From NCBI GenBank assembly GCA_018823885.1, contig JAHJHG010000009.1, forward strand, positions 783 to 64,782: a DNA stretch of 64,000 nucleotides, in the 5' to 3' direction. The notes beneath the pieces were generated by a model. It was not told the DNA's origin and did not search any database. It saw only the letters and a list, made by a program, of their open reading frames with translations. Below are positions 6,278 to 23,035 of the stretch, piece after piece; within the stretch, counting starts at the first letter, position 1, and every line of letters starts with the position of its first letter. Both the position numbers and the translations under genes were made by a program. The stretch comes from Patescibacteria group bacterium (lineage in GTDB: Bacteria; Patescibacteriota; Microgenomatia; UBA8517).

Positions 6278-6988
6278 ATGAAAAAAATAACCATTACACT
6301 CGCCCTATTTTTGTTGATATTAATCTTTGTTCCAAAAAACATTTTTGCACAAGGAACATTTTCCTGCTACCAGCCAACGGCCAGCGTTCCCTGTGTTCCA
6401 GCAAATGTATATTGTGAAGAAGGGTATATCCCCGACACTAGTTATTGTAGTGCAAGGACAAACTCTAATTGCAACAATGTCCCTGCGACAACATGCATAG
6501 AAATACAGGGGCCAGAAACACAAACTGGCTGCTCTTCTGTCAGCACGGGCAGAACATATTGCACAACACAAGCTGCCCCTGGATATGGAGATATAGAAAT
6601 ATACTGTTCTACCAGTGATGAGTGTGAGAGCTATAAAGCAGAGCATCCATTAGAATCATCGGATAGTGAGTTTCCAACCTGTTTTACCGACGGCAAAAAA
6701 GGAATAAATACAGCTATCGGTTGTATCCCGATAGAAGACTCGAATTTGCTGATTGGTTTTATCTTAAAATGGGCCATTGGTGTTGGTGGAGGTATTGCTT
6801 TCCTATTAATCGTCCTTGCAGGTTTTCAAATAATGACCTCATCCGGCAACCCGGATAGATTAAAAGCAGGCCAAGAATTAATGACCTCGGCTATTGCAGG
6901 ATTAATACTTTTGATATTCTCTGTTTTTATATTAAAAATTATTGGAGTTGATATACTAGAATTACCAGGCTTTGGAGGAACACCATGA
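6278..6988 (+). CDS. T4SS pilin-like protein (VirB2/TrbC-type two-TM core) with about 120 aa Cys-rich N-terminal extracellular extension. First member of the paralog array.
   Basis: Signal peptide. At least 11 Cys in residues 30-130. C-terminal TM-SSGNPDRLKAGQEL-TM core shared with downstream paralogs. Stop overlaps the next start (ATGA). Confidence 0.6.
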   Translation: MKKITITLALFLLILIFVPKNIFAQGTFSCYQPTASVPCVPANVYCEEGYIPDTSYCSARTNSNCNNVPATTCIEIQGPETQTGCSSVSTGRTYCTTQAAPGYGDIEIYCSTSDECESYKAEHPLESSDSEFPTCFTDGKKGINTAIGCIPIEDSNLLIGFILKWAIGVGGGIAFLLIVLAGFQIMTSSGNPDRLKAGQELMTSAIAGLILLIFSVFILKIIGVDILELPGFGGTP

Positions 6989-7311
6989 AACTTGCACAAG
7001 ATTTAGAAGAAATTCAAAGTAAGGCATTACCTCAGTTTGAATTCTCGGGAGAACAAGGAGATATTGGAAATGTTGTCTCCAGTCTTATTAATTATCTTTT
7101 TCCATTGGCTGGAATCTTACTTCTTCTCTATCTTATCTATGGCGGATTTAGTCTAATGACCTCGGGTGGAGATCCAAAAGCGGTTCAAGGCGCAAAAAGT
7201 AAAATTACTAGTGCTCTAATTGGTTTCATAATCATTTTTGCGGCCTATTGGATAGTACAAATAGTTGCGTCAATTTTAGGAATCGAGGCAATAACAAATA
7301 TCTTCGGATAG
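6985..7311 (+). CDS. T4SS pilin-like small two-TM protein (paralog 2)
   Basis: Core LMTSGGDPKAVQGAKSKITSALIGFIIIFAAYWIVQ...GI. Confidence 0.65.
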   Translation: MKLAQDLEEIQSKALPQFEFSGEQGDIGNVVSSLINYLFPLAGILLLLYLIYGGFSLMTSGGDPKAVQGAKSKITSALIGFIIIFAAYWIVQIVASILGIEAITNIFG

Positions 7312-7349
7312 ATTTGCACCCTACCTCTTTTGCCTGCTAAACTTAAACC

Positions 7350-7670
7350 GTGAATAAATTAGCTGTTGAGATAGGAGAAAAGTTTTTTGGGGAAGGTTCC
7401 AATACACCATTAGCCGAAATCAGTGGGATTGGAACTCTTGTCTCCATTATCGTCAACGCCGCATTTGTTTTGGCAGGTATTATTTTGCTCTTCTTCTTTA
7501 TCTTCGGGGGAATTTCTATGATTGCAGGCGCCGGAAAAGATAATCCAGATCAAGCGGCAAAGGGAAAGCAGGCAATAACTTCTGCTCTTCTTGGTTTTAT
7601 TGTTGTTTTTGCCTCCTATTGGATAGTACAATTAATCGAACTTGTCACAGGAATCATTATTTTAGGATGA
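7350..7670 (+). CDS. T4SS pilin-like small two-TM protein (paralog 3, GTG start)
   Basis: Starts GTGAATAAATTAGC (MNKLA). Core AGKDNPDQAAKGKQAITSALLGFIVVFASYWIVQ. Confidence 0.6.
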   Translation: MNKLAVEIGEKFFGEGSNTPLAEISGIGTLVSIIVNAAFVLAGIILLFFFIFGGISMIAGAGKDNPDQAAKGKQAITSALLGFIVVFASYWIVQLIELVTGIIILG

Positions 7671-8023
7671 ATAAATTAGCAGAAAACAGTCCTTTTGGAT
7701 CCATAAATTTACCAGAAACTATAGAGAATAAATATCCCGGTGGAGTAGAAGGTGGGGCAATAGGAATCTTTCTAAACTGGACTATCAAGGCCCTTATTAT
7801 TGGTGCCGGGGTATATGCTCTCTTTAATCTTGTTCTTGCCGGATATGCTTTCATGTCTGCTGGAGATGATCCCAAAAAAATGGCTGGTGCCTGGGCAAAG
7901 ATATGGCAAACTCTTTTGGGGCTTGCTTTTGCCGCTGGCGCCTTCGTCTTAGCCGCTATATTTGGACAACTGATATTTGGAGATCCAACTTTTATACTTA
8001 ACCCAACAATACCGACACCATGA
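7667..8023 (+). CDS. T4SS pilin-like small two-TM protein (paralog 4)
   Basis: Starts ATGAATAAATTAGC (MNKLA), overlapping the previous stop (ATGA). Core SAGDDPKKMAGAWAKIWQTLLGLAF. Confidence 0.6.
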   Translation: MNKLAENSPFGSINLPETIENKYPGGVEGGAIGIFLNWTIKALIIGAGVYALFNLVLAGYAFMSAGDDPKKMAGAWAKIWQTLLGLAFAAGAFVLAAIFGQLIFGDPTFILNPTIPTP

Positions 8024-8385
8024 ATAAATTAGCTGATATAAACCTGGCGCCCGAGGGAGGATTTAAAGGATTTGGTGCCCTGGGGTTAGAAGAAGGACAG
8101 AGCGCTCCAGCAGTATTTACAAAATTCATCTCCAGCGTTATTGGACTAATGACAATTATCGCCATTATCTGGTTTGTTCTTCTGATGATAATGGGGGCCA
8201 TTGGCATTATTAGTTCGGGGGGAGACAAAGCGGCGTTGGAATCTGCTAAAAAACGAATTACAACCGGAATTCTTGGCTTCGTCGTCGTTATTGCCGCTAT
8301 TTTTATTGTCCAATTAATAGGAAAACTGATAGGAATACCGAATATATTAGATCTGCCTGTCTTGTTAGAAGGAATTCAACAATAG
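8020..8385 (+). CDS. T4SS pilin-like small two-TM protein (paralog 5)
   Basis: Starts ATGAATAAATTAGC (MNKLA), ATGA overlap. Core SSGGDKAALESAKKRITTGILGFVVVIAAIFIVQ. Confidence 0.65.
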   Translation: MNKLADINLAPEGGFKGFGALGLEEGQSAPAVFTKFISSVIGLMTIIAIIWFVLLMIMGAIGIISSGGDKAALESAKKRITTGILGFVVVIAAIFIVQLIGKLIGIPNILDLPVLLEGIQQ

Positions 8386-8726
8386 TGAATTATCTTGCTC
8401 AAGATTCAATAGAAAATCCCGTCTTAGGCCCCTCTTTGCAAACAAAAACCGGTGTTGGGTTTTTCCAAGATCTTTTACCCAGAATGGTCGGTCTGGCTTT
8501 CCTTGTAGGTGTGCTTATCTTTTTCTTTGTCATGATAATGGGGGCGATTCAATGGATCACTTCTGGAGGAGATAAAGCAGGGATCGAGTTAGCCAGAGGA
8601 AAAATAACAAATGCTATTGTCGGAGTGGTTATTCTTCTCTCCCTTTTTGCTCTACTTAAAGTCCTTGAGGACTTTTTTGGAATAAACATACTTGCCCTTG
8701 ACATAGGGCCGCTTATGATTCAATAA
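8385..8726 (+). CDS. T4SS pilin-like small two-TM protein (paralog 6, GTG start overlapping previous stop)
   Basis: Core TSGGDKAGIELARGKITNAIVGVVILLSLF...FGI. Confidence 0.6.
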   Translation: MNYLAQDSIENPVLGPSLQTKTGVGFFQDLLPRMVGLAFLVGVLIFFFVMIMGAIQWITSGGDKAGIELARGKITNAIVGVVILLSLFALLKVLEDFFGINILALDIGPLMIQ

Positions 8727-8736
8727 TATACGCAGA

Positions 8737-9087
8737 ATGCTTAACTTTTTGTATTCAACCGCCGTTCTCGCAGCCGACGACATAAATCTTAGCCCCACAG
8801 GGGAATTTTCGGCTCTTGGTGACTTAACAATTGGCGGAATTGTTTCAGCTTTTATCCGATTAATTCTAGTTGTTGCCGCCTTGGTATTTTTCTTCATTCT
8901 TGTTATCGGAGGAATCAGGTGGATTGCCTCAGGTGGAGATAAGGCTCAAACCGAAACAGCCAGAAATCAAATTACGGCCGCACTTGTTGGATTGGTTATC
9001 GTTTTTGCCGCTTGGGCCATTGTTCAACTAATAAATACCTTCTTCGGTATTGACATTTTCAGTCTTACCCTCCCAACGGCACAATAA
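8737..9087 (+). CDS. T4SS pilin-like small two-TM protein (paralog 7)
   Basis: Core ASGGDKAQTETARNQITAALVGLVIVFAAWAIVQ...FGI. Confidence 0.65.
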   Translation: MLNFLYSTAVLAADDINLSPTGEFSALGDLTIGGIVSAFIRLILVVAALVFFFILVIGGIRWIASGGDKAQTETARNQITAALVGLVIVFAAWAIVQLINTFFGIDIFSLTLPTAQ

Positions 9088-9156
9088 AACAGGCTTGCTC
9101 CAATTACTTCATTAAGTTAAACTTTAAGTCGAAAAGTATTGGTATCTTTTTGCATC

Positions 9157-9486
9157 ATGAATAAAATTATTAGTACTGTATTGGCTGCTGAAATTGAAAC
9201 AGTGGATGATGTTGCCACACTTCAAGGCTTTGAAGGAGTTTTTGAAAACATAGTAACCATCGTCCTAGGATTTGGAGGTATTATTCTTTTCATCATGCTT
9301 ATAATGGGAGGGTTTCGATTTATAACCGCTGGTGGAGACCCCAAGGCAATCGAAGGTGCAAAAAAAACCTTAACTTATGCTATCGGAGGCATTGTTCTTG
9401 TTGCTCTTTCATTTCTAATCCTCAGATTTATTTCCACCTTTACCGGAGTCGATGTCACTCAATTTAAAATATTTCAAGGAAATTAA
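9157..9486 (+). CDS. T4SS pilin-like small two-TM protein (paralog 8). Likely start at MNKIIS.
   Basis: Core TAGGDPKAIEGAKKTLTYAIGGIVLVALSFLIL...TGV. Confidence 0.6.
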   Translation: MNKIISTVLAAEIETVDDVATLQGFEGVFENIVTIVLGFGGIILFIMLIMGGFRFITAGGDPKAIEGAKKTLTYAIGGIVLVALSFLILRFISTFTGVDVTQFKIFQGN

Positions 9487-9499
9487 CTTCAAAACAAAA

Positions 9500-11869
9500 A
9501 TGCACAAGCTGCCCAAGAAGCCTGTTAATAAAGAATGTTTTTCCCTGATTCTATTGTTTATATTTTTCTTTCTTGCTCTTGGGTTCTTTGTATCGAAAGC
9601 AAAAGCCCAAATCCCAAATCCTCCGGTTCCCTGCGATGAAACACGAAATGATGAGTTTCATTCTTTGAGGCCCTATCAAGCCAGCCCCTGTGATGACAAA
9701 GCGGACACCGCTCTTTTTTGTGGAAATGATTTAATTGTTGCCGATACGATCACTGTTACTAAAAATCAAGCAACATCATGCGAATCTCTATCTAGTGGAA
9801 AGGAAAAGTGTAGTTTTACAACAAGTAACTCAAAAAATATTAGGATTGATTTATCAAGTGCCGATTTTCCTATTCTAGGTAATACCGAAAGTGTCGTAAA
9901 TATTGACAAAGATGCTGATGATTCTGGATTTGATGATGTAGGAAAAACAAATGAATACGTTAGCTGGTATCTAAACGGCACCATAAATCGCGCCGAGTAT
10001 GAGTTTCTAAACCCAAGCGAAAAACAAGACATCAGCAAGCTTATAGATTTTTCTGGCCCCATCAACAAACTTCTTCCATGGGAACAACAAGTAGCATACA
10101 GAATAAACACAATCAAACAAACTGGCGCAACGCGTCATGATCAAATAATTGCTTGTACTGTTGCGGGTGTTCCCGTTCCTTGCTATCACCAAGGACTACT
10201 CGAAATAATCGATACAAAACACCGACTTTCTGACTGGGAAGGGAAAATCACAAATTTACCAACACTGCCTGGTACTTGGAACGAAAGGGTACCTCCTCAA
10301 AGAAAAGATTTTGAAAATTTTCTAAACTACTGGGAAGCTTACAGGGAGTGGAGGGGCAATAGTTGTGGCCAATTTACAATTCCAATAATAAACAAACGTG
10401 TTCTTCTCTGCTCTCCTATTGACAATCCACTTAGGCCAAATTACTGGGCGGATCTATTTCCCTATGTTCCTTTTTCTTCAACGGAAGACCAGCTTGGGTT
10501 TGTTGAAACACAAACCTTGACCGCTTATTCTCCATCGGAAGATGTTACTTTAAAAGAAGTTTTATTTGATAATCAGGAACCAGCGGAACTCTTCTTTGCT
10601 CACACAGAAGAAGTTGCAGAGTTGGCTAGTATTTTGCAAAAAACGTTCGCTCCACAAGGTGCGGAAAACAATCTGTCATTTTCAGGTGTTTCTCCTACTG
10701 AATACTGTGATCTTGTAAATGTCCGTACAAACGAAGGGGATGATCTTTTTGCCGGAGAAATAGGTGGAGTACTTTCATACACCGCTGAATTTACGTGCGA
10801 ACTTGAACCAGGAGCAAGCAATGCTTGCGAAAGCGCAGGAGGAGAATGCATAAATACTCCCAGTTGTATCCGTGTCGGCAAAGGAACTGTGAATGGAGGC
10901 TCTGGGTGCAATACAGTAAACGAGACCTGCTGTGCACGAGAAGAGCCATTGTCTGGACAGGAGTGCACAAAAGAAATATACGCTAATTTGTCTGTTATAA
11001 CAAAAACCCCTAAGGTGAATGAAATTTGGGCAAGAACCGTAGCTGGACCATCATCAATTTTTAAAAGAATATTTCCCAAGATAGGAGAGGGTGGGGCTAT
11101 CTTGGGATTATTAGATATTCCCGGCGCAACAAACGTTACCTATTCAGGTGATGGCCTTGTCTACGCTGGCAATCCAGGAAACGAACGTTCTGGAGAATCT
11201 GCTGAACTATACTTCCCGCACGTTGGAGGGGTATCTGAATATTTCTTGAAAGGAATTCAAACTATTCTTCGACCAAAAGGCTTTGGGGAACAAATTCTTT
11301 CTGGTCAACCAGGAACAGAGTCGCCCGTACAAGAATGTAATCAAGATATTTCTAATTCGGCAATCCCCTCAAAATATCTGGGAGCATTCAAAGAAAACTT
11401 CATTCGCATGGCGAGAGATTGGAGTGAGAAGACTGAATGCCAGGGGCTTGAAAATACGATGGCGGATGAATGTTATAACGACGTTGTTAAGCGCTCTGTT
11501 GATAAAGGAGTAAATCCTGCCTTCACCTTAACCATCTGGCTTAATGAAACTGGTGCCAGTAATTATTGCGAGAGTGGGTCAACGGCTCAGGACTTTGGTA
11601 TTAGAATTCCATCTATCTTCCAAAACTTTGGAGAACAACTTGATCATTTTTTGGGTTTGCCTTTCAGTGGTACTTATGTCTCTTGCTCCAATGAAGCTGG
11701 TTGGGATAATAGAATACATGCTTTTCTCAGTAGATTTCGATCAGGCGGTTGTGATCCAACGGACAGTGAAGGAAATATCTATTACAACCACATTAAAGAA
11801 ACAACTTGGCCTTGGGTATCAAATTGTTCAAATCTCCCTAGTTGGCCAACAGACACGAGTTGTCCTTAA
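9500..11869 (+). CDS. Large secreted Cys-rich protein of unknown function (about 790 aa). Candidate pilus-associated adhesin or tip protein.
   Basis: Signal peptide MHKLPKKPVNKECFSLILLFIFFFLALGFFVSKAKAQ. More than 30 Cys including a dense cluster CESAGGECINTPSCIRVGKGTVNGGSGCNTVNETCCA. No TM after the signal peptide. Sits between the pilin array and the VirB6-like gene. Confidence 0.55.
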   Translation: MHKLPKKPVNKECFSLILLFIFFFLALGFFVSKAKAQIPNPPVPCDETRNDEFHSLRPYQASPCDDKADTALFCGNDLIVADTITVTKNQATSCESLSSGKEKCSFTTSNSKNIRIDLSSADFPILGNTESVVNIDKDADDSGFDDVGKTNEYVSWYLNGTINRAEYEFLNPSEKQDISKLIDFSGPINKLLPWEQQVAYRINTIKQTGATRHDQIIACTVAGVPVPCYHQGLLEIIDTKHRLSDWEGKITNLPTLPGTWNERVPPQRKDFENFLNYWEAYREWRGNSCGQFTIPIINKRVLLCSPIDNPLRPNYWADLFPYVPFSSTEDQLGFVETQTLTAYSPSEDVTLKEVLFDNQEPAELFFAHTEEVAELASILQKTFAPQGAENNLSFSGVSPTEYCDLVNVRTNEGDDLFAGEIGGVLSYTAEFTCELEPGASNACESAGGECINTPSCIRVGKGTVNGGSGCNTVNETCCAREEPLSGQECTKEIYANLSVITKTPKVNEIWARTVAGPSSIFKRIFPKIGEGGAILGLLDIPGATNVTYSGDGLVYAGNPGNERSGESAELYFPHVGGVSEYFLKGIQTILRPKGFGEQILSGQPGTESPVQECNQDISNSAIPSKYLGAFKENFIRMARDWSEKTECQGLENTMADECYNDVVKRSVDKGVNPAFTLTIWLNETGASNYCESGSTAQDFGIRIPSIFQNFGEQLDHFLGLPFSGTYVSCSNEAGWDNRIHAFLSRFRSGGCDPTDSEGNIYYNHIKETTWPWVSNCSNLPSWPTDTSCP

Positions 11870-11919
11870 ATGGTGTGTTGTTGACCCTACATTCGTATTG
11901 TATGATTAAAATAATAAGT

Positions 11920-13488
11920 ATGTTCAAGAAAGTTATTGTCTCGTTTATATTAGTCTTCTTGCTTTTTGCTGCATTAGTAACTCCCAATGCAAAAGCTCAG
12001 GGAGGAGGAAATTGGTATAATCAATCTTTTGAAGAGTGGTCTGCAAAGGTTTTTGATGACAGTAACCCTCAAGAAATATTTGGGGAAAGATATACCTATG
12101 CGCAGGTAACTTGGATCTTACACTCTCTACAGGCTTTTGCGTATGGAGACGATTTGATTAATTGTGTTAATGTTTCAAACGGAGATTTAAATGAAATTAA
12201 AGATTGTGTGAAAGGACTTCAAGAATCAAGTTCATTTATTAATAGCCCCGTATTGGCGATTGGTGCTTTTGGAGATTCTGTTCTTTCTCTTCATCCGGCG
12301 TCAGGTGTTGAATATGTCGCGGACACTGCTTCCAGGCTAAAAATAATTCCAAGTGCTTATGCGCAAGGAATTGGATTTGAAGGATTACAGCCGGCCCTAA
12401 AAGCGTGGAAGGTAACACGCAATATGACCTATGCTCTTTCTATTCTCGCCGTGATCGTTATGTCTTTTATGATTATGTTTAGGGTAAAAATTTCACCACA
12501 AGTAGTAATCACTGTTCAATCTGCACTCCCTAAAATTATTATTGCTTTAATACTTATCACTTTTTCTTATGCCATTGCTGGCTTTATTATTGATATTTCC
12601 TATCTTCTTCTGGGAATCATTGCTGCATTAGTTACATCCTCCGGGGTGGATATTTCTAGTTTGAACATGATACCGTTTTTCAACACATTCGTAATGGGTT
12701 CCGGCCTTTTTTGGTCTCTCATACTAACGCAGTTGTTATTTTTATTATTGTTCGGGATAACTGGAGCGCTAGTAGGAGCTCTTTTCGCCGTTCCCACTGG
12801 AGGATTGTCAATTGCCATTGGGGGTGGTATTGGAGCTATTCTTTTTCTCCTACTCATTGTTCTGATGATTTTTGCCAGCATAAAAATTCTCTGGCTTTTG
12901 GTAAAAACCACCATCAACATCCTTCTTCTTATTATCGCTGCTCCAATAATGATTTTAGCAGGAACGTTTTCGTCAGGAATAGGGTTTGGACCTTGGTTAA
13001 GACAACTTGTAGCCAATGTTGCCGTATTTCCAATGGTTCGAATCATGTTGTTCTTAGCCCATTATTTCTTTTGGGGAATGCGCATGACACAAGAGGTCGA
13101 TCTTGCCGGGTGGACTGCCGTCAATCCTTTGGGAATTCTTCCTTCTGGAGGAGAAATGGCTGTCCTGCCCGGCTATCTTCCTTTTAGCGTCGGAACCGGA
13201 CTTTTAGGTTGGATTCTCTCTTTCGGCGTGTTTTTCTTAACACCTAAGATCGGTGATATAATCAAGTCCATGATTGAAGGCAAACCATTCGCTTATGGAA
13301 CGGCTATCGGAGAGGCTGTTGGACCAATAGGCGCCGCTTGGGGATCAACCCCTGCACGTCTTGGCAAAGAAGCTGTTATTAGAGGGGGTGGTACAGAAAT
13401 TGCAAGCAGACTGAGAACAAAAGGGAAACTAGCAACTCAAATAGGAGACCAGCTTGACAATATTCTTAATTCAAAAAGGGGTTCTTAG
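11920..13488 (+). CDS. VirB6/TrbL-like polytopic membrane protein (T4SS inner-membrane channel component)
   Basis: Signal peptide, about 160 aa extracytoplasmic domain, then at least 6 TM helices and a Gly-rich C-terminal tail. Position and topology typical of VirB6/TcpH. Confidence 0.55.
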   Translation: MFKKVIVSFILVFLLFAALVTPNAKAQGGGNWYNQSFEEWSAKVFDDSNPQEIFGERYTYAQVTWILHSLQAFAYGDDLINCVNVSNGDLNEIKDCVKGLQESSSFINSPVLAIGAFGDSVLSLHPASGVEYVADTASRLKIIPSAYAQGIGFEGLQPALKAWKVTRNMTYALSILAVIVMSFMIMFRVKISPQVVITVQSALPKIIIALILITFSYAIAGFIIDISYLLLGIIAALVTSSGVDISSLNMIPFFNTFVMGSGLFWSLILTQLLFLLLFGITGALVGALFAVPTGGLSIAIGGGIGAILFLLLIVLMIFASIKILWLLVKTTINILLLIIAAPIMILAGTFSSGIGFGPWLRQLVANVAVFPMVRIMLFLAHYFFWGMRMTQEVDLAGWTAVNPLGILPSGGEMAVLPGYLPFSVGTGLLGWILSFGVFFLTPKIGDIIKSMIEGKPFAYGTAIGEAVGPIGAAWGSTPARLGKEAVIRGGGTEIASRLRTKGKLATQIGDQLDNILNSKRGS

Positions 13489-15809
13489 CGCCTTTCTTCT
13501 TCGTATCTTCGCTTTGGAGGAGGTTTGACAACAGCCGGCCCTATACTGACTCCCATATTTCCAACATCTTTTCTCGTCTCATTGTAACCAAGCTGCAAGT
13601 TACTAACTTCTTCCTTGCCAGCAATTTCTGCTAGTCTGGCAAATATTTTTGTATAAAATCGAAGTAAATGTACCATTCCTTGAGAATATCCTTTTACTCC
13701 CCCATACTCATCTGGCATACTAGAAAGCTTTGTTTTCCACCAAGACATTTCTACCGCCCATTTTTGCTTCTCTCCTTTTTCAAAACCACGGGCGCCGACA
13801 ATGTCATATTTGTCCGCAACTTTTAACGATATCAGCAATGGCACCAAGCCCATTGTCAACACTGCTTTAGATTGTTTCTCGTCCCTGGTTCCCAAGTCTG
13901 CCCTTTTTAAAAGCTCTCTTATATTATCTACGTCTCCAAAGAAATCCTTAAATTGCCCTTCGTTCGCTGCAGACTCTGGATCCACCATTACTGTCACATA
14001 CCTTACTATTTGGCCTATTGTTATCATCCAACGGTATAGCGCTTGGTCTCCCATTTTGACCCACTTAAACTCAGACTTCGCCTTACCTGCGCACAATTCA
14101 TCCCAAGCACTTGGATCTCCCTCTTCAATGTCGCGCTTTCCTGAAAAGGAAATTGTATTCAGAAAGTTCAGAGAAGCTATTTCAGGAGGGAAAAAAATAG
14201 GTATAACTATCGGATTGCCAGTTTCGTCTTTGTAGGATGTTTCCCAATACCAAAGTAGCTCCCTTAAACCCTCTTTTGCCTCTTGATCCCAACCACTCTC
14301 TTCCCACAACTCTTTAAAGGCGCGTTGAAGCTTTTGGTCCTTTTCAGCAACTGCCTCTAAATATTCCGGTATCCAATCAGGGCGTTCACTAAGCAGTTTC
14401 TTTCTAAATTCGTCGCTCATTGGAAGAAACATTCCTATTGTTCGCGGTTTTCCTTCATTGTCAGCAATAAAATCTCTCCAATAAGCCACACTAATGGCGT
14501 CTGTCGCTACTGTTGTTGCTCCACCAACCCGCCTCCTAGCTACCTTAAGACTTTTCTTTCCATTTTCTTCTACTTCCCTTAGTGCGTACTTCCATCCCCA
14601 TCCTAAGCGAGTACTTACAAAGTGTCCCCAATCCTCTACTATTTCAGCTCTAACAACCTCCCTCGCAAGTGCCTGATTCAAGTTTGCGTTCATACTACGC
14701 CACATTTTTACTCCTTGCTCCGCCCAACCCCTTACTCCTTCCGCTAGTGCTTTTGCTTTGGCCACGTCGCCAGTGGCAATATAGTCCTGCAGTGCTTCTT
14801 TTACGGTTCGTTTTTTGTGTCGATCAGTAGGCATCACTAATAAAGTCTCCATTGCAGCGATGTATAAACGTTTCTTTTCTTCTATGCTGCCCATTGCGTA
14901 CCAGTTTAGAAGAGCTCTGGGCACTACCCCATCCTGCTCGTGAATTAACCAACCATCTTCATTTCTGAGTTTTTTATTTTCATTTGGATATTTTTTCTCT
15001 AATTCTCTTTCTTTTTCCTCAACAAACTCACGTTGCTCTTTGTCTTCAAATACCGTACGTATAAATTGAATTTCTATATCGCTGAGCGTCCTTTGCCCTT
15101 CGGCATCCTTCATAAATGAAGATTCTTTCTTGCTCATTTGGCTTACTTCTGCTACTGCCATTATCCAGAAAGTGCACTCGTCTTGATATTTGACAGCCTT
15201 TTCTCTTGTTTCTTCTCTCCCTTCTTCTAACAACGATGTTTCTTCTTGCTTAGCAACACTCATCCCTGGGAGCTCTTTCTGAAAAGACCCTTCATAAAAG
15301 GAAGCAGTCGGGTCACTGCGCATTCTCTCCCTAACCCAATAAAGCATATTGTGCCAATCATAAAACTTATCTAGAACTCCGCCCATCCCCTCTAATACTT
15401 TTTGGGTGTTCTCTCCCCACGTCAAATCAACCGCCAATCTATCTAGCCACCGCTTAGCCTCGCCTTCTGCCCAATCCTCATCCCGTGCTGTTCTTACTGC
15501 ATTGATAGCCGTGCTGAACCACATTTCTTGAGTCCTAGAATCATAAGGGTAAGGATTCTTGAACCTCATCTCAAGGTCAAGTGTTTTTTCCAGTTCCCTC
15601 ACCTGAGCCTTCATTAGTCTTTCGTGCGTGGAATACAGTTTTTCTTGTGTTTTCTCCTTGTCTATAAACCCAATTTCTTTCCACTTTTTGAGTTCATCTA
15701 TCATATCCAAAAGGTTTGAGTTAGCAAAACCATACCGCTCGCGAGTTTCTCCTCGCCTCAACGACTCACTTCTTGGATCTAACATCAGGTCTTGATTTTT
15801 CTCTGTCAT
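13485..15809 (-). CDS. Large soluble Trp/Glu-rich hypothetical protein (774 aa), encoded on the opposite strand inside the T4SS locus
   Basis: Long uninterrupted ORF. No TM or signal peptide. No recognisable catalytic motif. Confidence 0.45.
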   Translation of the reverse strand: MTEKNQDLMLDPRSESLRRGETRERYGFANSNLLDMIDELKKWKEIGFIDKEKTQEKLYSTHERLMKAQVRELEKTLDLEMRFKNPYPYDSRTQEMWFSTAINAVRTARDEDWAEGEAKRWLDRLAVDLTWGENTQKVLEGMGGVLDKFYDWHNMLYWVRERMRSDPTASFYEGSFQKELPGMSVAKQEETSLLEEGREETREKAVKYQDECTFWIMAVAEVSQMSKKESSFMKDAEGQRTLSDIEIQFIRTVFEDKEQREFVEEKERELEKKYPNENKKLRNEDGWLIHEQDGVVPRALLNWYAMGSIEEKKRLYIAAMETLLVMPTDRHKKRTVKEALQDYIATGDVAKAKALAEGVRGWAEQGVKMWRSMNANLNQALAREVVRAEIVEDWGHFVSTRLGWGWKYALREVEENGKKSLKVARRRVGGATTVATDAISVAYWRDFIADNEGKPRTIGMFLPMSDEFRKKLLSERPDWIPEYLEAVAEKDQKLQRAFKELWEESGWDQEAKEGLRELLWYWETSYKDETGNPIVIPIFFPPEIASLNFLNTISFSGKRDIEEGDPSAWDELCAGKAKSEFKWVKMGDQALYRWMITIGQIVRYVTVMVDPESAANEGQFKDFFGDVDNIRELLKRADLGTRDEKQSKAVLTMGLVPLLISLKVADKYDIVGARGFEKGEKQKWAVEMSWWKTKLSSMPDEYGGVKGYSQGMVHLLRFYTKIFARLAEIAGKEEVSNLQLGYNETRKDVGNMGVSIGPAVVKPPPKRRYEEERR

Positions 15810-15859
15810 AATAGGAATATTTTAGCATCCTCTATTCCAACTTACAATTCCTTGACTTT

Positions 15860-16606
15860 GTGTATTATGGGCTGTACAATCGCAAGCAAATGAGTTTTGA
15901 GCAAGAAATATCTTGGCTGAAAAAAACCAAAGAAGCCAAAGATGCGTTAGAAGGACAACGAAAAATCAAAGCCGAGACAGCGGAATTGAAACGCTTAAGA
16001 TGGATAGAAGAAAGAACTGCACAGTTTGCGCCCCATAAATCAACTGCGTTGCGTTTTCTCAAAAGATGGAATGAACTAGAAATCGATAAACTTATCGAGG
16101 ATCTTCACAGTTTTAGTACTAGCACTAATAATTATGGCAAACCCACTAATACTTTTGTTGTATTCCAAAATCTAAACGTCGATCGACATTCTAAGGAGAA
16201 GAAAACACAATTTTTGAACTTGAAACAGTATGAAAAAGGCTGGTGTGTCGAACAAGAAGATAATTGTTTTCCAACAATCAGTGAGGTTTTAGCCAACAGC
16301 AAACTCATCAGAAACTTGGAACCAAACAAAATAATATTTTCTCATATCTACAAAGCGTGTCATACATTTATAGAAGAACGTGATTGTCTCGATGACACCT
16401 ATTCTAGCTACGCAAGAATTGACTTTAGCATAAAAATGTCTCCTTATGAAATTATTGTCTTCCACCCAAGAATTTCTCATAAAAGGAGCTTGGTATCGTT
16501 AGAAGAACTACAAAATAGCGGAGATCTGGCCCAAAGATTGGATAGATTTTTAGCAGAACAGTACAGTAAGCAGGCCCCGGCAGAGACAGAAAATAAGATT
16601 CAATAA
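15860..16606 (+). CDS. Hypothetical cytoplasmic protein (248 aa)
   Basis: ORF with no recognisable motifs. Lies between the 774-aa gene and the VirB3-like gene. Confidence 0.4.
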   Translation: MYYGLYNRKQMSFEQEISWLKKTKEAKDALEGQRKIKAETAELKRLRWIEERTAQFAPHKSTALRFLKRWNELEIDKLIEDLHSFSTSTNNYGKPTNTFVVFQNLNVDRHSKEKKTQFLNLKQYEKGWCVEQEDNCFPTISEVLANSKLIRNLEPNKIIFSHIYKACHTFIEERDCLDDTYSSYARIDFSIKMSPYEIIVFHPRISHKRSLVSLEELQNSGDLAQRLDRFLAEQYSKQAPAETENKIQ

Positions 16607-16742
16607 TATTACTTCAAATTTCAGTACTTAATTCGCCCAAGCACTTTGCTACATCATTTGTGTGAAAAGCTGGTCTACTTGAAATAGCTTCTTCACGCAG
16701 TACTCTTAATTAAGGGTTAAAACTATATAACTCACCCTATCT

Positions 16743-17786
16743 ATGGATCAACAACACCCTATACCGCAACAAATATCTTCCTACCAGTTTAAGTTGGTAG
16801 GAAATATGACTTTAAAGCAATTTTTCCAAATAGCGGGAGGAGCTCTGTTTTCTCTTCTTTTCTATGCATCAAATCTTCACCCCGTTATCAAATGGCCTCT
16901 TGTAATATTTTTTGCTCTTTTTGGAGCCGCTCTTGCTTTTCTTCCCTTTGAAGAAAGACCTCTTGAGCAATGGGTTATTTCATTTTTCAAAGCAGTCTAT
17001 ACTCCTACTACCTATTTTTGGGGGAAAACGACCAAGCCTCCTGTGTTTTTTAAAGAAGAAGCGTCTGTGCCCCAAGAGCATGTTGTTGCCCCACATGGAG
17101 AGAAAGAATTGGAAAAATACTTGCAGAGTCTTCCAGGGCGAGGCACTTCCGTATTTTCCAAACTCGAAGAGGCTGAAAATACTTTCCTTTCAAAACTTAC
17201 TAGGCTTTTCGGAAGTGGCGGAACAAGAGCGATTGAAACCCCCTCTTCAGCCGCTATGGCTCAACATACCCCGCAAGAGAAACAGCAAGAAATGACTGTG
17301 CCGCAAAACATACCAACTGTTATTCCGCAAGGATATAAGCCCAGGGTTGTGGTTGAAGAAAAAAAACCACTACTTCAAAATCAACAGCCAGCAGAAGCAA
17401 AAACTTCCACCGTTGCCAAGACGTTCACTGCTCAAGAAGTGATATCGGGACAAGCCGCCCAGTTCTCCGTCAATGCAGCTCCTCCACTTCCCCCTGAGAA
17501 GCCTAATACACTAACTGGTCAGGTTGTCGATGCTGGTGGCAAAATCATTGAAAGTGCAATACTCGAAATCAGAGATGTTGCCGGCCGACCTGTTAGAGCC
17601 GTCAAAACAAACAAAGTGGGGCACTTCATAATTGTTACCCCATTACAAGATGGGCGATACGAAATTATAAGCGAGAAGGAAGGGCTTAATTTTGAGCCAT
17701 TAACCTTTGAAGCAACCGGGAGCATTATTCCACCAATTGCGATAAGGTCTAAAAATAAAATTCCCACACCAATAATAATTAATTAA
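16743..17786 (+). CDS. Membrane protein with VirB3/PrgI-like N-terminal two-TM hairpin, Pro/Gln-rich linker and C-terminal carboxypeptidase-regulatory-like (Ig-like) domain
   Basis: N-terminus MTLKQFFQIAGGALFSLLFY...VIFFALFGAALAFLPFEERPLEQW. C-terminus GQVVDAGGKIIESAILEIRDVAGRPVRAVKTNKVGHFIIVTPLQDGRYEI. Directly upstream of the VirB4 ORFs. Confidence 0.45.
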   Translation: MDQQHPIPQQISSYQFKLVGNMTLKQFFQIAGGALFSLLFYASNLHPVIKWPLVIFFALFGAALAFLPFEERPLEQWVISFFKAVYTPTTYFWGKTTKPPVFFKEEASVPQEHVVAPHGEKELEKYLQSLPGRGTSVFSKLEEAENTFLSKLTRLFGSGGTRAIETPSSAAMAQHTPQEKQQEMTVPQNIPTVIPQGYKPRVVVEEKKPLLQNQQPAEAKTSTVAKTFTAQEVISGQAAQFSVNAAPPLPPEKPNTLTGQVVDAGGKIIESAILEIRDVAGRPVRAVKTNKVGHFIIVTPLQDGRYEIISEKEGLNFEPLTFEATGSIIPPIAIRSKNKIPTPIIIN

Positions 17787-17787
17787 T

Positions 17788-18447
17788 ATGAAAATTCCTT
17801 TTATTAGCATACCAGATAAGCCAATATCAGCAATTTCTCAAAAACATTTGCCGATTGCCGATATTGTTGATGACCTGGTTTTGTACAAAGATGGAGGTGC
17901 GGCAATTATCTTGGAAACTACCTCCCTTAACTTTGGTCTTTTGTCCGAAAAGGAGCAACAAGCTGTTATTGCCGCCTATGCTGCTCTTCTCAACTCTCTT
18001 TCTTTTGCTATCCAAATAGTTATTCGCTCTCAAAGAAAAGATATCTCGAGCTATATGAAATATCTTGATGAGGCTTCAAACAAAATTCAAAACCCAAAGC
18101 TTATTGAAATCATGACGGGTTACAAAAACTTTGTTTCTGAAACGATAAAGAAAAAAAATGTTCTGGGAAAAAGATTTTTTATTGTCATTCCGTTTAGCGC
18201 TTTAGAGCTTGGTGTAACGAAATCTGTTCTTTCGATTGCAAAAAAAGGCCCACTTCCATACCCCAAAACCTACGCAATTAAAAAAGCCAAAGTTTCTCTC
18301 TATCCAAAAAGAGACCATCTTATCAGACAAGCCGGGAGATTAAGTATAAAACTAAAACAACTCTCCACTGCGGAATTAATAGAGCTTTTCTATGACATTT
18401 ATAACCCAGAAATGCCAGCAGTTAAAAGCAAGGAGGACACCGTATAG
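17788..18447 (+). CDS. VirB4/TrbE N-terminal-domain-like protein (219 aa). Either a separately encoded N-domain or the 5' part of a split virB4.
   Basis: LPIADIVDDLVLYKDGGAAIILE..NFGLLSEKEQQAVIAAYAALLNSL..IQIVIRSQRKD aligns with the VirB4 N-terminal block (LPY.GHLSDHIVLLEDGS...FELEE.E.RN....NTLLRN...VSIYAHLVRH). Stop lies 1 nt before the ATG of the ATPase ORF. Confidence 0.45.
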   Translation: MKIPFISIPDKPISAISQKHLPIADIVDDLVLYKDGGAAIILETTSLNFGLLSEKEQQAVIAAYAALLNSLSFAIQIVIRSQRKDISSYMKYLDEASNKIQNPKLIEIMTGYKNFVSETIKKKNVLGKRFFIVIPFSALELGVTKSVLSIAKKGPLPYPKTYAIKKAKVSLYPKRDHLIRQAGRLSIKLKQLSTAELIELFYDIYNPEMPAVKSKEDTV

Positions 18448-18448
18448 T

Positions 18449-20410
18449 ATGGACGTACCAGGTTTTTTGAAAAAGAAACAGACAATCCAAGAGGACGCAG
18501 CACAAACAAGTGCCAGTGTGTCTTTACCTCAATCTCAAAATGTTGACAACACACCACCCCCCAATGGTGAGGTTGCTCAAAACAATACTCCAACAAAAAA
18601 ACCACCCATTCCTTCTCCCACCATTGCCTTTAGTCAAAAACAAATGCCCCTTATAGACATTCTTGCTCCTCAATCAATGGAAGTTGATTTTGGCTTTATT
18701 AAAATAAACAATGTCTATTTTAGAACTCTCTTCATCGCCGGATATCCAAGATTTGTTTCCCCTGGGTGGTTAGAACCAATCGTCAATTTTGATAATTCTT
18801 TAGATATTTCATTTAACATTTATCCTGTTGCCGGGAAAACAGTTCTCGACGATTTGAGACGAAAAATTGCCGAGATGGAGGCTGAAATAGCCACTGACCT
18901 CGAAAGGGGAAAAATCGTTGATCCTTCAACCCAAGCAAAACTAGAAGATGCAAGAACGTTGCAAGAACAATTGGTAAAAGGATCTGAGCGCTATTTTGAA
19001 TTTTCTCTCTATATAACCATCCCCGCTCCCTCTCTGGAAGAATTAAACCAAATTACCCGCCAAATCGAATCAACTCTTGGTTCTCTTTTGATCGTTGGCA
19101 AAAGAGCCACTCTTGATATGGAAAAAGGATTTCTTTCGTCAGCCCCTTTTGGAAGAGATGTCCTCTCAATTACAAGAAATATGGATACCACTTCTTTGGC
19201 AACCACTTTTCCGTTAACTTCTGCTGAATTATCCTCCGACAAAGGCGTACTTTATGGCATTAATTCACAAAATGATTCTTTCATTATCTTCGACAGATTT
19301 TCGCTGGAAAACAGCAACATGACTATCTTTGCTACCTCGGGTGCCGGAAAAAGTTATTTTGTTAAATTAGAAGCCTTAAGATCTTTAATGCTCGGAACGG
19401 AGGTTATTGTCATCGACCCTGAAAGCGAATACGAAGCATTGGCTGGTGCAGTTGGTGGACAATTTGTCTCTTTTTCATTTAACTCTCCGTCTAAAATTAA
19501 TCCTTTTGACCTAACTCAAATCTACGAAGAGGGAGAAAATCAGCTAGGATTAAAAATCCTAACTCTTCATTCTCTTTTTAAGGTCATCATGGGGCAATTG
19601 AATGCTACCCAAGAAGCCCTTCTTGATCGAGCCTTGGTGGCAACATACAGAGCAAAAGGAATAACTCAAGACCCAGCAACCCAAAAAAGAGAACCTCCTT
19701 TAATGGAAGATCTTTACAAAATTTTAATGGGTATGGAGACCGCGGAAGCAAAAGACTTGGCAGCAAGAATTGAAAAGTTTGTAAAAGGAAGTTTTGTCGG
19801 CATGTTTGATCAGCAAACAAGCGTCGAGATAAAAAACCCTTTTGTTGTTTTCTCTGTTAAAGATCTGCAAGAAGCACTCAGACCAATTGCCATGTTTATC
19901 ATCTTGGATTTCATTTGGACAAGAGTAAGAAGAGATATTAAAAGAAGGTTGCTGATCGTCGATGAGGCTTGGCACATGATGCGATATGAAGACTCTGCTC
20001 AATTCCTCTGGAGCGTTGTTAAAAGAGCAAGGAAATACTTTCTAGGATTGACCACTATAACGCAAGATGTAGAAGATTTCTTGAGTCAAGACATCGGTAA
20101 AGCTATCGTTACAAACTCGGCTCTTAGGCTTCTCCTTAAGCAGTCTCCTGCGGCAATAGACAAGATCGGCGAAGTCTTTTATTTATCTCAGGGAGAAAAA
20201 CAACTCTTAATGGGGGCGAACATTGGGGAAGGAATCTTTTTTGCTGGACCCCACCATGCACCAATAAGTGTCGTCGCATCCAAAGAAGAACATAAATTGA
20301 TCGATTCAAGGCCTCAGGAAAAGACATTCAATGAAAATGTTGATTCAAGACCTTTTGCAACAACAGAACAAGTTACTCAAAGGAATCAATATGACAGAAA
20401 CCCTCAATAA
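18449..20410 (+). CDS. virB4: T4SS ATPase VirB4/TrbE/CagE family
   Basis: Walker A FATSGAGKSYF. Walker B RLLIVDEAWHMM. RBS AAGGAGGA about 12 nt upstream of ATG 18449. N-terminal Pro/Thr/Gln-rich low-complexity stretch, then a GYPRFVSPGWLEP block. Confidence 0.8.
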   Translation: MDVPGFLKKKQTIQEDAAQTSASVSLPQSQNVDNTPPPNGEVAQNNTPTKKPPIPSPTIAFSQKQMPLIDILAPQSMEVDFGFIKINNVYFRTLFIAGYPRFVSPGWLEPIVNFDNSLDISFNIYPVAGKTVLDDLRRKIAEMEAEIATDLERGKIVDPSTQAKLEDARTLQEQLVKGSERYFEFSLYITIPAPSLEELNQITRQIESTLGSLLIVGKRATLDMEKGFLSSAPFGRDVLSITRNMDTTSLATTFPLTSAELSSDKGVLYGINSQNDSFIIFDRFSLENSNMTIFATSGAGKSYFVKLEALRSLMLGTEVIVIDPESEYEALAGAVGGQFVSFSFNSPSKINPFDLTQIYEEGENQLGLKILTLHSLFKVIMGQLNATQEALLDRALVATYRAKGITQDPATQKREPPLMEDLYKILMGMETAEAKDLAARIEKFVKGSFVGMFDQQTSVEIKNPFVVFSVKDLQEALRPIAMFIILDFIWTRVRRDIKRRLLIVDEAWHMMRYEDSAQFLWSVVKRARKYFLGLTTITQDVEDFLSQDIGKAIVTNSALRLLLKQSPAAIDKIGEVFYLSQGEKQLLMGANIGEGIFFAGPHHAPISVVASKEEHKLIDSRPQEKTFNENVDSRPFATTEQVTQRNQYDRNPQ

Positions 20411-22391
20411 AATACTGGTCCCGGTAAGCAAAAGAACCGTTAACTTCCTTCATCGGGGTCTTAAGGTTTTTTACCCAGAGATTGTTTTTGGAAGGAAGGA
20501 TGGTAAAAAAATAACTGTTCCTAATTTTTGGCCCGAGGGCGGATATATAAAATCAGATTTTGCCGAACTTCTAAAGAAAACGACGAAAAAAAATGATATT
20601 GATCAAGCTATAAAGATTGTTCTTGAATGGAAAAACCTGTGGGATGAAGGTACACAGCCTGACGATACTATTCCGGAAATTCTTGACGATCTGGTTTCCT
20701 CCATGGATGAAAATGCGACCGGGGAGAAGAAGTTAAGTTCCTACGACAAGCAAGCCCTGGCCAAAAAAACACTACTGGAAAGCCAAAAACAGATTGAAAA
20801 ATCCATATCTATACCAGAACCTATACCTGCTACCTCATCTTCCACAGTCGTATCAAGAACCGCTGGTCGATTTCTATCGGCACCCTATAGAGCCGCCACC
20901 TATCTTTCAGGTCCTACAACCTATTCGAGTTCTGCAAAAGAGGAAGGTCCAGGTACTGCAACGGCGAGATATATGATGAGCCACGGAATATCAAGCGCTT
21001 CGATTCGATCGCTTGGGAATAAAGCTCAACAACTAGGAATTACACCAAGTCAGTTAAATAACCTCGCGAACTTAATTAAGACAGAACAAGAAGCACATCC
21101 TTTTAGTCATAAATGGATTTCTAGAATCTACAGCAGACAAGCTGGTCTGTCTGAATCTCAAGTCGCCTCCTTCCTTATACCATCTGCTGATGGTTCAACC
21201 GCTGTGTTGCCAAGAAAATCGTTTGTGGGAAATGTTATTGGACGGATTGGACAACAACTCTTTGGAAAAGTTTCTTCAAAAGCATTTAAAGCAGTGGGCA
21301 AAAAAGTTGCCGCAAAGGTGACAACAACCGCTGCCGCACAAGCTATCGGAGCGGTAGTGGCTCCAGGACTAGCAAATATTGCCCTTCTTGTTGTAGGAAA
21401 AATAAAAGATTTTATTTCCAGTCTTAAGACAAAGGAGGGCAAAGAAAGGATCCTTGCATTAATTTCTGGGGCGATGTTTCTTGGCGGCATTACCCTTGGC
21501 GGACTTTTAGGAGCCGCCCTTGTTGTTGGTGGTTTTATTTCAGGAGTCGGCTTATTAGCAGCAAAAGCAGGGGGCTTTGGTCTTTTAGGAGCAAGTATTG
21601 GAAGTTTTGGACAAGCGTTTATGGCTGGCCTAACTGGTGTTGTTTTTCCTTCTATTGCAGCCCCACTTATAATCTCTTTTATTTCTATCCCTGTCATGAT
21701 TGCTATCATTCTATTTATTATTAATTCCGGTGCATACATTGTTCCTCCTAGTCCTTTTTCTGAGTCTTCGTTTGCCGGCTTCCCAATAGAATGCACTACA
21801 GAAAAATTACCGGTTTCGCTTCCAAAACCGACAACTTCACTAATTACCGTAAGGGCTTGGGAAATAACGTCGGATCTTTACCAAGGCTTTTGGTGCTACT
21901 GGAATCGTTCTCCAGGAGATTTCCCCGAAGATGTCACTCTTTATCCACCAAGCTACCCTGATTTATTTAATGAAGTATATTTTGAGAAAGACCCTTTTCC
22001 ATCACCGACAGAGGCCTCAAAATGTGGAAATTGTTTGTTTTGGTGTACTTATCTCGTACAAAAAGCCTATCGAGAAACTGGAAACACAGATATTATGATC
22101 ACTCTTTGGTCACCAACAATGTACGAAGATTTTTTAAGGAGGGGAAAAATTATTGTGTCCTCTGAAGCTACTCCTGAAAATGTTGTTTCGGGTAGTGTTA
22201 TTTTCTTTCAGGTTCTTTCAGGGCAAAATAGAATTAATCACGTAGGTATCGTTCATTCAACTACTAAGGACAGTATTCAATATATCCAATCGAACGCGCC
22301 AACTAAAGATGGTTCTCTTACTTTTAGTTTGTCAGGAATAGGAATTCAAGATCTACCTGGTATCAAAATTGTTGGAATCGGATTACCTTAA
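20391..22391 (+). CDS. T4SS-associated cell-wall hydrolase. N-terminal soluble region, Gly/Ala-rich multi-TM region and C-terminal CHAP (Cys-His amidase/peptidase) domain. Likely a PrgK/TraG/VirB1 functional analog.
   Basis: Start ATG 20391 with AGGA RBS, overlapping the virB4 stop. CHAP catalytic Cys in KCGNCLFWCTYLVQKAY and His in INHVGIVHS. Long GxxxG-rich hydrophobic stretch in residues about 320-470. Confidence 0.6.
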   Translation: MTETLNKILVPVSKRTVNFLHRGLKVFYPEIVFGRKDGKKITVPNFWPEGGYIKSDFAELLKKTTKKNDIDQAIKIVLEWKNLWDEGTQPDDTIPEILDDLVSSMDENATGEKKLSSYDKQALAKKTLLESQKQIEKSISIPEPIPATSSSTVVSRTAGRFLSAPYRAATYLSGPTTYSSSAKEEGPGTATARYMMSHGISSASIRSLGNKAQQLGITPSQLNNLANLIKTEQEAHPFSHKWISRIYSRQAGLSESQVASFLIPSADGSTAVLPRKSFVGNVIGRIGQQLFGKVSSKAFKAVGKKVAAKVTTTAAAQAIGAVVAPGLANIALLVVGKIKDFISSLKTKEGKERILALISGAMFLGGITLGGLLGAALVVGGFISGVGLLAAKAGGFGLLGASIGSFGQAFMAGLTGVVFPSIAAPLIISFISIPVMIAIILFIINSGAYIVPPSPFSESSFAGFPIECTTEKLPVSLPKPTTSLITVRAWEITSDLYQGFWCYWNRSPGDFPEDVTLYPPSYPDLFNEVYFEKDPFPSPTEASKCGNCLFWCTYLVQKAYRETGNTDIMITLWSPTMYEDFLRRGKIIVSSEATPENVVSGSVIFFQVLSGQNRINHVGIVHSTTKDSIQYIQSNAPTKDGSLTFSLSGIGIQDLPGIKIVGIGLP

Positions 22392-23035
22392 TGTTTAAGA
22401 AAAAAAATGCCATCATTATTGTTTTTGTTATCTTGATTATTGTTTTTGTTTTCCTTCAAATAAAAACTCAGTCTCCCAAAGTGATAGCGACTCAACCTGA
22501 AGATGGCTCTATCCATGTCTCTCAAGAAACTGATCTTTCTATTCTTTTTGATAAAGCATTAAATGATAAAAACATTAAAAAAATTAGTCTTGAGATCACA
22601 CCAAAAGAGGACTTTGGGCTTGTTTTTTCAGAAAAAGCAATGATTGTTTCTTTTATAAACAATCTTCAACCCGACACTCTTTACTCTATTGTTGTTAAGT
22701 ATAATAGCAAACCTATTTACAATTTTTCTTTTGAAACAACACCATTTACCGACGAAATTATTTCTAAAGAAGGGGCACTTCAATCTATTGACGATTCAAT
22801 CTTTGGCGAGGCTTTTGAAAATTTCATCGAAAATTATCCTTGGTATGTTCATCTTCCGATTGAAAATAGTCAATATCGTATTGTTTACGATTTTGAACGA
22901 AAATCTTTTAGAATAAGAGTTCTCGTTCCCGACTTAGATCCAGAACAAGAAGAAGTGTTTATTGAAAATGCTATTGAAAATCTAAAAACAATTGGTTTAA
23001 TTGAACCTATTAATTACTACGTTATAAAAGAGTAA
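22391..23035 (+). CDS. Bitopic membrane protein with extracytoplasmic Ig-like domain. Possible VirB8-position T4SS component.
   Basis: N-terminal TM IIIVFVILIIVFVFL, then IATQPEDGSIHVSQETDLSILFDKAL Ig-like block. Start overlaps the stop of the hydrolase gene. Confidence 0.4.
   Translation: MFKKKNAIIIVFVILIIVFVFLQIKTQSPKVIATQPEDGSIHVSQETDLSILFDKALNDKNIKKISLEITPKEDFGLVFSEKAMIVSFINNLQPDTLYSIVVKYNSKPIYNFSFETTPFTDEIISKEGALQSIDDSIFGEAFENFIENYPWYVHLPIENSQYRIVYDFERKSFRIRVLVPDLDPEQEEVFIENAIENLKTIGLIEPINYYVIKE

Follow-up and report, generated by a model that had tools for sequence, protein, structure and literature searches.

The 64,000-nucleotide window analysed here, the whole stretch of DNA read from a Patescibacteria group bacterium (Microgenomates-type), carries a chromosomal type IV secretion system (T4SS) locus of monoderm type that adjoins dnaN/dnaA, and inside this locus lie two soluble, unannotated proteins referred to as X and Y. 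X (13485-15809, minus strand, ATG start, 774 amino acids (aa), hypothetical protein KKH23_03045 in NCBI) is a fixed part of the locus, inherited vertically, and the first-described member of a new, unannotated protein family, and we consider it functionally dedicated to the T4SS with good confidence. Y (15860-16606, plus strand, GTG start, 248 aa) is, judged from its sequence and surroundings, an orphan, strain-specific cargo open reading frame (ORF) in a hypervariable slot and not a T4SS component. The explanation as a whole, in which X is a lineage-specific core gene of the locus with a cytoplasmic accessory role and Y is cargo, falls just short of being probable. A preliminary description of the same DNA had given both ORFs these coordinates and strands, in exact agreement with the ORF list and with the two genes annotated by NCBI (where the start of Y differs), and had called them soluble, unannotated and enclosed in a T4SS locus, all of which stands; the flanking gene that it named VirB6 carries this name by topology and position only. 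Its view that the two genes interrupt the T4SS genes applies to Y alone, as a strain-specific insertion, and fails for X.

Nineteen related loci were collected by looking up the exact proteins and by scanning GTDB genomes and JGI metagenomes, and were mapped by tblastn with the window proteins; because some of them are near-duplicates (L002 with L005, and L006 with L013 and L015), they represent about 15 distinct lineages. The VirB6-like gene follows X directly and convergently in 18 of 19 loci that extend far enough downstream, the exception being L018 with only a 71-aa fragment, and of the 13 loci that extend far enough upstream, 12 have PrgI next to X and divergent from it. The order dnaA-dnaN-...-hydrolase-VirB4-TrsD-PrgI, followed by X on the opposite strand and then by the VirB6-like gene, the gene for the exported protein p805 and the pilin genes, is shared by the window, L001, L005-L009 and L019, and the slot and orientation of X are identical in the window, L001, L005-L010, L013, L014 and L019 (the L012 contig shows only the X-PrgI side). 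This linkage is kept for family members at the detection limit of the searches, namely P0111, P0101 (E 3e-11), P0087 and P0076. X is single-copy and occurs 1:1 with the locus; every retrieved context is a T4SS locus, and no homologue free of T4SS linkage, which the preliminary description had proposed as counter-evidence, appeared among them. Measured by residence in a virB4 neighbourhood with PrgI, TrsD, VirB6-like and pilin genes, X belongs to the locus and Y does not.

Two of these loci, L006 (CAYMZX010000003.1) and L008 (CAZTVZ010000003.1), come from GTDB species-representative metagenome-assembled genomes titled 'uncultured Gammaproteobacteria bacterium' and carry a CPR-type (candidate phyla radiation) locus; relative to the window, dnaA is 65-66% and VirB4 81-82% identical, and mislabelling of the bins is probable.

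All loci belong to related organisms (dnaA identity 63-90%) with a common gene order between dnaA and SpoIID, so that synteny by itself carries little weight, and X might be a lineage-specific protein unrelated to secretion whose position is kept by conserved gene order near the replication origin. We regard this as improbable in view of how the locus behaves when it is rearranged. A PyrB-like gene replaces the upstream half of the locus in L011, leaving no PrgI or VirB4 upstream, and X still stands beside the VirB6-like gene, p805 and seven pilin genes, which argues that it belongs to the envelope module. Foreign genes lie beside X in L012, L005, L003 and the window without having parted it from the locus, and no relative of X was found in other searched contexts, comprising PLSDB plasmids, INPHARED phages and IMG/VR.

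The family to which X belongs became visible through profiles. A word-indexed search for X returned six clusters at 90% identity, and a HMMER profile search of 1.84 billion representatives (50% identity) returned 106 clusters at E <= 1e-3, 63 of them at E <= 1e-30, with members mostly of 750-1070 aa; a word-indexed search with a 74-sequence alignment added at least one further protein. Pfam and NCBIfam profiles revealed no shared domain among 54 members, and sequence and profile searches of the PDB with the family alignments yielded no relative, the best match, a designed coiled coil (E 0.013), being rejected. Paralogy of X with p805 or with the CHAP protein of the locus was rejected as well (hhalign probability < 1%). 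Conservation in the family extends from end to end at an occupancy of about 1 and includes a set of near-invariant polar residues. R642 (100%), L639, Q224, K635, W691, R636, R202, G430, P541 and P537 are near-invariant, D437, D491, E117, E203, N548, S579 and T524 are further conserved, and the strongest motif is KR..LG.R at 635-642. Sequence conservation of this kind points to a specific site for binding or catalysis. Selection on X is purifying, with a ratio of nonsynonymous to synonymous substitution rates (dN/dS) of 0.12 against L003 and 0.14 against L001; the values of its neighbours are 0.12 for PrgI, 0.10 for the VirB6-like gene, 0.08 for VirB4 and 0.04 for dnaN.

The sequence of X agrees with several points of the preliminary description. 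Its richness in Trp, Glu and Lys was confirmed (Trp 3.5% compared with 0-2.4% in 14 other window genes, Glu 11.6%, Lys 8.8%), and the absence of transmembrane segments from both proteins was borne out by maximum Kyte-Doolittle values over 19 residues of 1.55 for X and 0.50 for Y, both under the transmembrane threshold, the neighbouring proteins having clear transmembrane segments. X has no signal peptide, and a motif scan found no Walker A, HUH/HxH or HExxH motif in it. The claim that neither protein has a known motif also held, as no significant match was obtained for X or Y with Pfam, NCBIfam, PHROG or PADLOC; matches to DUF5618 (E 0.076) and, in PHROG, to a terminase small subunit (E 0.019) were sub-threshold and rejected as noise. 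X is mildly richer in GC than its flanks, as had been described, with 0.430 compared with 0.390 for the window (98.5th percentile among equal-length windows) and 0.391 at third codon positions. This excess is real but minor and no sign of foreign origin, since it is limited to one subclade (the window, L001 and L005) and does not recur in six more distant loci; foreign origin by GC was rejected, the orthologues being syntenic across deep divergence.

The structure of X was predicted with AlphaFold (AF2) from 74 diverse sequences at a mean predicted local distance difference test score (pLDDT) of 92.5 and a predicted template modelling score (pTM) of 0.92, all five models exceeding a pLDDT of 91. 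This run was used in place of one with a 6-sequence alignment, which was unusable at a pLDDT of 43.6. The model is compact and single-domain-like, mostly helical with added beta-hairpins: an N-terminal helical region (residues about 12-225) is followed by a mixed middle part with two long beta-hairpins (404-429 and 519-539) and by a C-terminal helical bundle (590-751) with a 44-residue helix, and the C-terminal tail, which is not conserved, is modelled as disordered. Foldseek comparison, which covered the PDB and BFVD, gave a best E value of 0.83 with TM-scores <= 0.12 against 350,542 PDB chains, and nothing similar in BFVD (best E 0.042). The top matches were long and helical (Bro1, ABC transporters and tape-measure proteins among them) and were rejected as noise at these TM-scores. 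On this model, the fold of X is confidently predicted and appears to have no relative among solved structures.

The preliminary description had suggested that a gene in this position might encode a coupling protein, a relaxase or a regulator and had proposed a search of the predicted structure for HUH/relaxase, primase or nucleotidyltransferase folds. That search returned no match to solved structures for the model, and the suggestion found no support from motifs or profiles either. X is not a coupling ATPase or relaxase, because it has no P-loop or HUH motif. Relaxases (MOB, HUH) were rejected, as X has no HxH motif, no profile match in X or the 54 members and no Foldseek match; coupling proteins (VirD4/TcpA) were rejected for want of a Walker A motif, a transmembrane segment, an AAA, TraG or T4SS-DNA_transf profile and a fold match. 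Neither a primase nor a nucleotidyltransferase fold was detected, and neither was matched by a profile in the 54 members. A VirB8-like (NTF2-like) identity was likewise rejected, X having no transmembrane segment, a mostly helical structure with two long beta-hairpins and no NTF2-like match.

X appears to form a transcription unit of its own. An extended -10-like element, TGCTAAAAT, lies 9 nt upstream of its start codon (15819..15827, minus strand), and TGnTAAAAT or TATATAAT occurs 6-12 nt ahead of the X start in at least 10 loci, from which an independent X mRNA, leaderless or with a very short leader, is predicted; we infer that the element is the promoter of X itself. Transcription of X would thereby be divergent from the PrgI-TrsD-VirB4-hydrolase operon and convergent with the pilin-p805-VirB6-like operon. 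On the convergent side, the stop codons of X and the VirB6-like gene overlap by 4 bp (13485-13488), as they do in L019 (10553-10556), the two genes being separated by 12-62 bp in other loci. No terminator-like site was found between them in the window, and read-through across the two ends would yield mutual antisense RNA. Rfam and repeat scans of 13000-17200 gave nothing meaningful. On the divergent side, the motif TGTGAAAA-N9-CTTGAAA-N11-TTCAC..TA..CT precedes PrgI (core 16661..16696 within the block 16657-16742, plus strand) and is unique in the window; its columns are invariant in 11 of 11 loci, including ones in which X is less than 25% identical, and a GTGAA/TTCAC inverted repeat flanks its -35-like TTGAAA. 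The motif is probably the promoter and operator, as a candidate from sequence, of the PrgI-TrsD-VirB4-CHAP operon.

This arrangement would also fit X being a regulator or sensor of T4SS expression, acting through the operator-like motif upstream of the PrgI operon, from which X diverges, or through interference of convergent transcription with the pilin-p805-VirB6-like operon, whose last stop codon X overlaps or nearly reaches. Such a role is very improbable: the 54 members contain no helix-turn-helix or other DNA-binding domain, Foldseek returned no match to any regulator, and 774-1070 aa of conserved protein go far beyond the needs of an antisense device. The dN/dS of 0.12 points the same way, since it indicates that the X protein itself is selected.

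The reading that we favour, because of the strict 1:1 presence and fixed position of X, is that of a cytoplasmic factor for docking, gating or assembly in the VirB6-like/p805/pilin module, and we hold it tentatively. X would be transcribed alone from its strong -10 promoter and would act as a soluble protein at the cytoplasmic face of this envelope module, where a conserved basic patch (K635, R636 and R642, with R202 and Q224) would bind a partner or substrate. Several observations weigh against this proposal. The sampled loci come from one CPR lineage and gene order around oriC is generally conserved, so that part of the synteny of X could reflect inheritance rather than function, with L011 and L012 as the only rearranged cases. 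X is not co-transcribed with any machine gene, and Saccharibacteria T4SS loci work without an X homologue. X also diverges about 4.5 times faster than VirB4, which is unusual for a cytoplasmic machine subunit; it was not found by BLAST in L009 and gave only a partial alignment of about 25% identity in L019, loci in which VirB4 is still 74-78% identical. Its interaction, localisation and expression are, moreover, what we infer from sequence and model.

The same rate of change leads to a different proposal, in which X is the T4SS's own translocated or exported substrate, an effector that would be synthesized in the cytoplasm, lack a Sec signal and be sent through the channel to the host bacterium or the cell surface. 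Mean pairwise identities, calculated from seven complete loci (six for X), are 0.43 for X, 0.39 for the CHAP protein, 0.45 for the VirB6-like protein, 0.49 for p805, 0.58 for PrgI and 0.60 for dnaN, followed by the slower TrsD (0.70), dnaA (0.71) and VirB4 (0.81), so X is the fastest-evolving gene of the locus after the CHAP hydrolase and in the rate class of the envelope or exposed proteins p805 and VirB6-like. When the divergence of dnaA and dnaN was regressed out, the divergence of X tracked that of exported p805 best (partial r 0.78, compared with 0.47 for the VirB6-like protein and 0.13-0.14 for VirB4 and TrsD), a weak mirror-tree style correlation over 15 non-independent pairs from 6 taxa. 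A soluble protein with neither signal peptide nor transmembrane segment, encoded by a separate opposite-strand transcription unit with its own promoter, would suit a substrate, as would the disordered, non-conserved tail, whose last 30 residues are net positive in 49 of the 74 members (mean +1.5) on otherwise acidic proteins (whole-protein mean -15).

CagA, a substrate encoded in the T4SS locus of the cag island, offers an analogy only: X is likewise large, soluble, clade-limited, encoded in the locus, fast-evolving and apparently served by its own promoter, and ends in a basic disordered C-terminus, but the two share no homology, X is more deeply conserved and strictly fixed in position, and its translocation is hypothetical. 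Protein export has been suspected of the Patescibacteria T4SS, with no known substrate (PMC10633639). We nevertheless rate the substrate proposal as rather unlikely, as a strict 1:1, single-copy presence at a fixed position over deep divergence is more typical of machine parts. The argument from rate is indirect, the charge signal of the C-terminus is weak and its tail not conserved, X contains no recognisable toxin or enzyme domain, and there is no conserved adjacent immunity or chaperone gene, the neighbouring slot being empty in most loci.

This slot, between X and PrgI, is where Y resides. NCBI annotates Y as hypothetical protein KKH23_03050, 238 aa from ATG 15890, and this is probably the real start. 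Y matched only itself among 5.8 billion clusters, and tblastn gave no match in related loci, plasmids or phages. Its in-frame codon log-likelihood of 0.125-0.14 per codon (off-frame about 0) is under that of all long window genes (mean 0.259 +/- 0.05, minimum 0.159), and Y, a 248-codon open frame within otherwise gene-free DNA, is probably a real gene but young or foreign. Intergenic blastn showed that similarity to relatives ends at about 15900 and returns at about 16656-16661, which delimits a variable cassette (15901..16655) without counterpart in relatives and bounded on both sides by conserved sequence; no repeats or insertion sequence hallmarks were found flanking Y.

The contents of the slot differ between loci. 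It measures only about 100-330 bp in L001, L006-L010, L013, L014 and L019. In L003, which has an X 82% identical to that of the window, it holds a 251-aa gene, in L002 and L005 a DUF4177 gene with a 228-aa gene, and in the distant relative L012 (3456-6636) a cluster of four genes, among them those for a YcaO cyclodehydratase and a nitroreductase-family protein. By its sequence, this cluster looks like a biosynthesis cassette for a ribosomally synthesized and post-translationally modified peptide (RiPP) of the azole-modified kind inside the T4SS locus. Y has no detectable homology to the slot genes of other loci, and hidden homology to those of L003 and L002 was rejected (shuffle z-scores <= 1.6).

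Just ahead of Y lies a sigma-70-like promoter, TTGACT-17-TACAAT (15852..15880, plus strand), with 10 of 12 consensus matches and its end 9 nt before ATG 15890. The surrounding sequence (15843-15894) is 80-87% identical to L003 (about 939-990) and L005 (9621-9672), and the element TTGACT-17-TAcAAT stands 7-9 nt before an ATG in all three genomes, followed by unrelated ORFs, the 251-aa gene in L003 and the DUF4177 gene in L005. It is a fixed site for the probably leaderless expression of swappable genes. Y is best seen as strain-specific cargo outside the T4SS machine, because it is unique to its genome and lies behind a promoter that heads different ORFs elsewhere.

The locus around X and Y begins with nine VirB2-like pilin genes (6278-9486, plus strand, T4SS_pilin Pfam matches), followed on the same strand by p805 (9452-11869), a Cys-rich exported protein of 805 aa with 27 Cys and a single N-terminal hydrophobic segment, and by the polytopic VirB6-like membrane protein (11842-13488, 548 aa) with about 9-10 hydrophobic segments. 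The latter had no Pfam, NCBIfam or PDB sequence match, which is why its name refers to topology and position only; VirB6 was described as hard to detect in Microgenomatia in a 2025 survey (PMC12102498). p805 had no family match and is kept in every locus between the VirB6-like gene and the pilin array, a further undescribed conserved component with a divergence that tracks X. In the window (4468-6204, minus strand) and in the distant loci L009 (20241-22022) and L019 (17773-18556), the pilin array has a SpoIID-domain gene beside it, perhaps a conserved partner of the locus in cell-wall remodelling.

Beyond X and Y, the downstream T4SS operon is opened by a PrgI/VirB3-like gene with a CarboxypepD_reg domain (16743-17786, plus strand, Pfam PrgI E 1.8e-06) and continues on the plus strand with a TrsD-like gene (17788-18447), a VirB4 of the CD1110 family (18392-20410, E 1.9e-113, 380 bits against a cutoff of 325), a membrane protein with a CHAP hydrolase domain (20331-22391) and a Big_5 protein (22391-23035). 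The listed VirB4 ORF and the end of TrsD share 56 bp (18392-18447), and the CHAP-protein ORF and the end of VirB4 share 80 bp (20331-20410), both annotated likewise in L001; the real starts of the VirB4 and CHAP-protein ORFs may lie further downstream, or the overlaps may reflect translational coupling. dnaN and dnaA follow beyond the Big_5 gene on the minus strand, and the remainder of the window is housekeeping (YidC, LeuRS, an AddA-like helicase and GroEL). Pfam and NCBIfam profiles revealed neither a relaxase nor a coupling or VirB8-like protein in the locus.

Loci of this kind have been reported before. Wang et al. 2023 (PMC10633639) described the chromosomal T4SS that Patescibacteria carry near the origin without a relaxase, and Quinonero-Coronel et al. 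2025 (PMC12102498) gave a survey of it; its position near dnaA, its pilin arrays and its essentiality in S. epibionticum are on record there. The S. epibionticum cluster (SEML1_0006-0019) resembles the locus of the window in being adjacent to dnaA/dnaN, in its MPF-FATA-type VirB4, TrsD-like, PrgI/VirB3-like and cell-wall hydrolase genes, in its polytopic VirB6-like protein and divergent VirB2-like pilin array, and in having neither a relaxase nor a nearby coupling protein. The Saccharibacteria cluster differs in having two 'extended' VirB6-like proteins of ~1000-1090 aa, whose hydrophilic domains are ARM-like, together with an NTF2-like protein, and no large soluble gene on the opposite strand, whereas the window locus has a short VirB6-like protein of 548 aa with X and p805 as extras. 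The monoderm MPF-FATA systems (pCF10 Prg/Pcf, pGO1 Trs and CTn2 CD1110) share the CD1110-family VirB4, PrgI, TrsD and a CHAP hydrolase; in contrast to them, the window locus contains pilins and no detected relaxase, coupling or VirB8-like protein, and X has no counterpart in them by profile or fold.

The hydrophilic domains of 'extended VirB6' proteins (FEMS review PMC12857230), compared by description, are similar to X in being large, hydrophilic, mainly helical and linked to VirB6. X differs as a separate gene about three times larger and without an ARM/HEAT-type Foldseek match, and its action as a detached hydrophilic domain of an extended VirB6 is a functional conjecture. The X family is not mentioned in PMC10633639, PMC12102498 or the 2025 T4SS review. 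The locus type is already known and the X family is new; the window thus presents a known T4SS class with an undescribed lineage-wide component.

A more far-reaching possibility, which we judge unlikely, is that X represents a component class unseen in characterised T4SSs, either the long-sought protein substrate of the Patescibacteria T4SS or, in one large CPR lineage, a new-fold cytoplasmic gate or receptor that replaces a locus-encoded coupling protein. The slot, with Y, the 251-aa gene, the DUF4177 gene and the YcaO cluster, would then serve to take up strain-specific cargo genes for host interaction that are expressed together with the system. The slot shows how new genes get plugged in behind a fixed promoter, and the case of X illustrates that annotation-based surveys of these loci overlook conserved components. 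With the Patescibacteria T4SS, essentiality of a T4SS for the cell that carries it was demonstrated for the first time, in S. epibionticum (PMC10633639), and at stake are its cargo and the way in which substrates are recognised without a linked coupling protein or relaxase. X, as a locus-linked, soluble and lineage-wide protein with an unmatched fold, is a candidate for the substrate or for a substrate-handling step, and its profile and high-confidence model provide a handle for structural and interaction studies.

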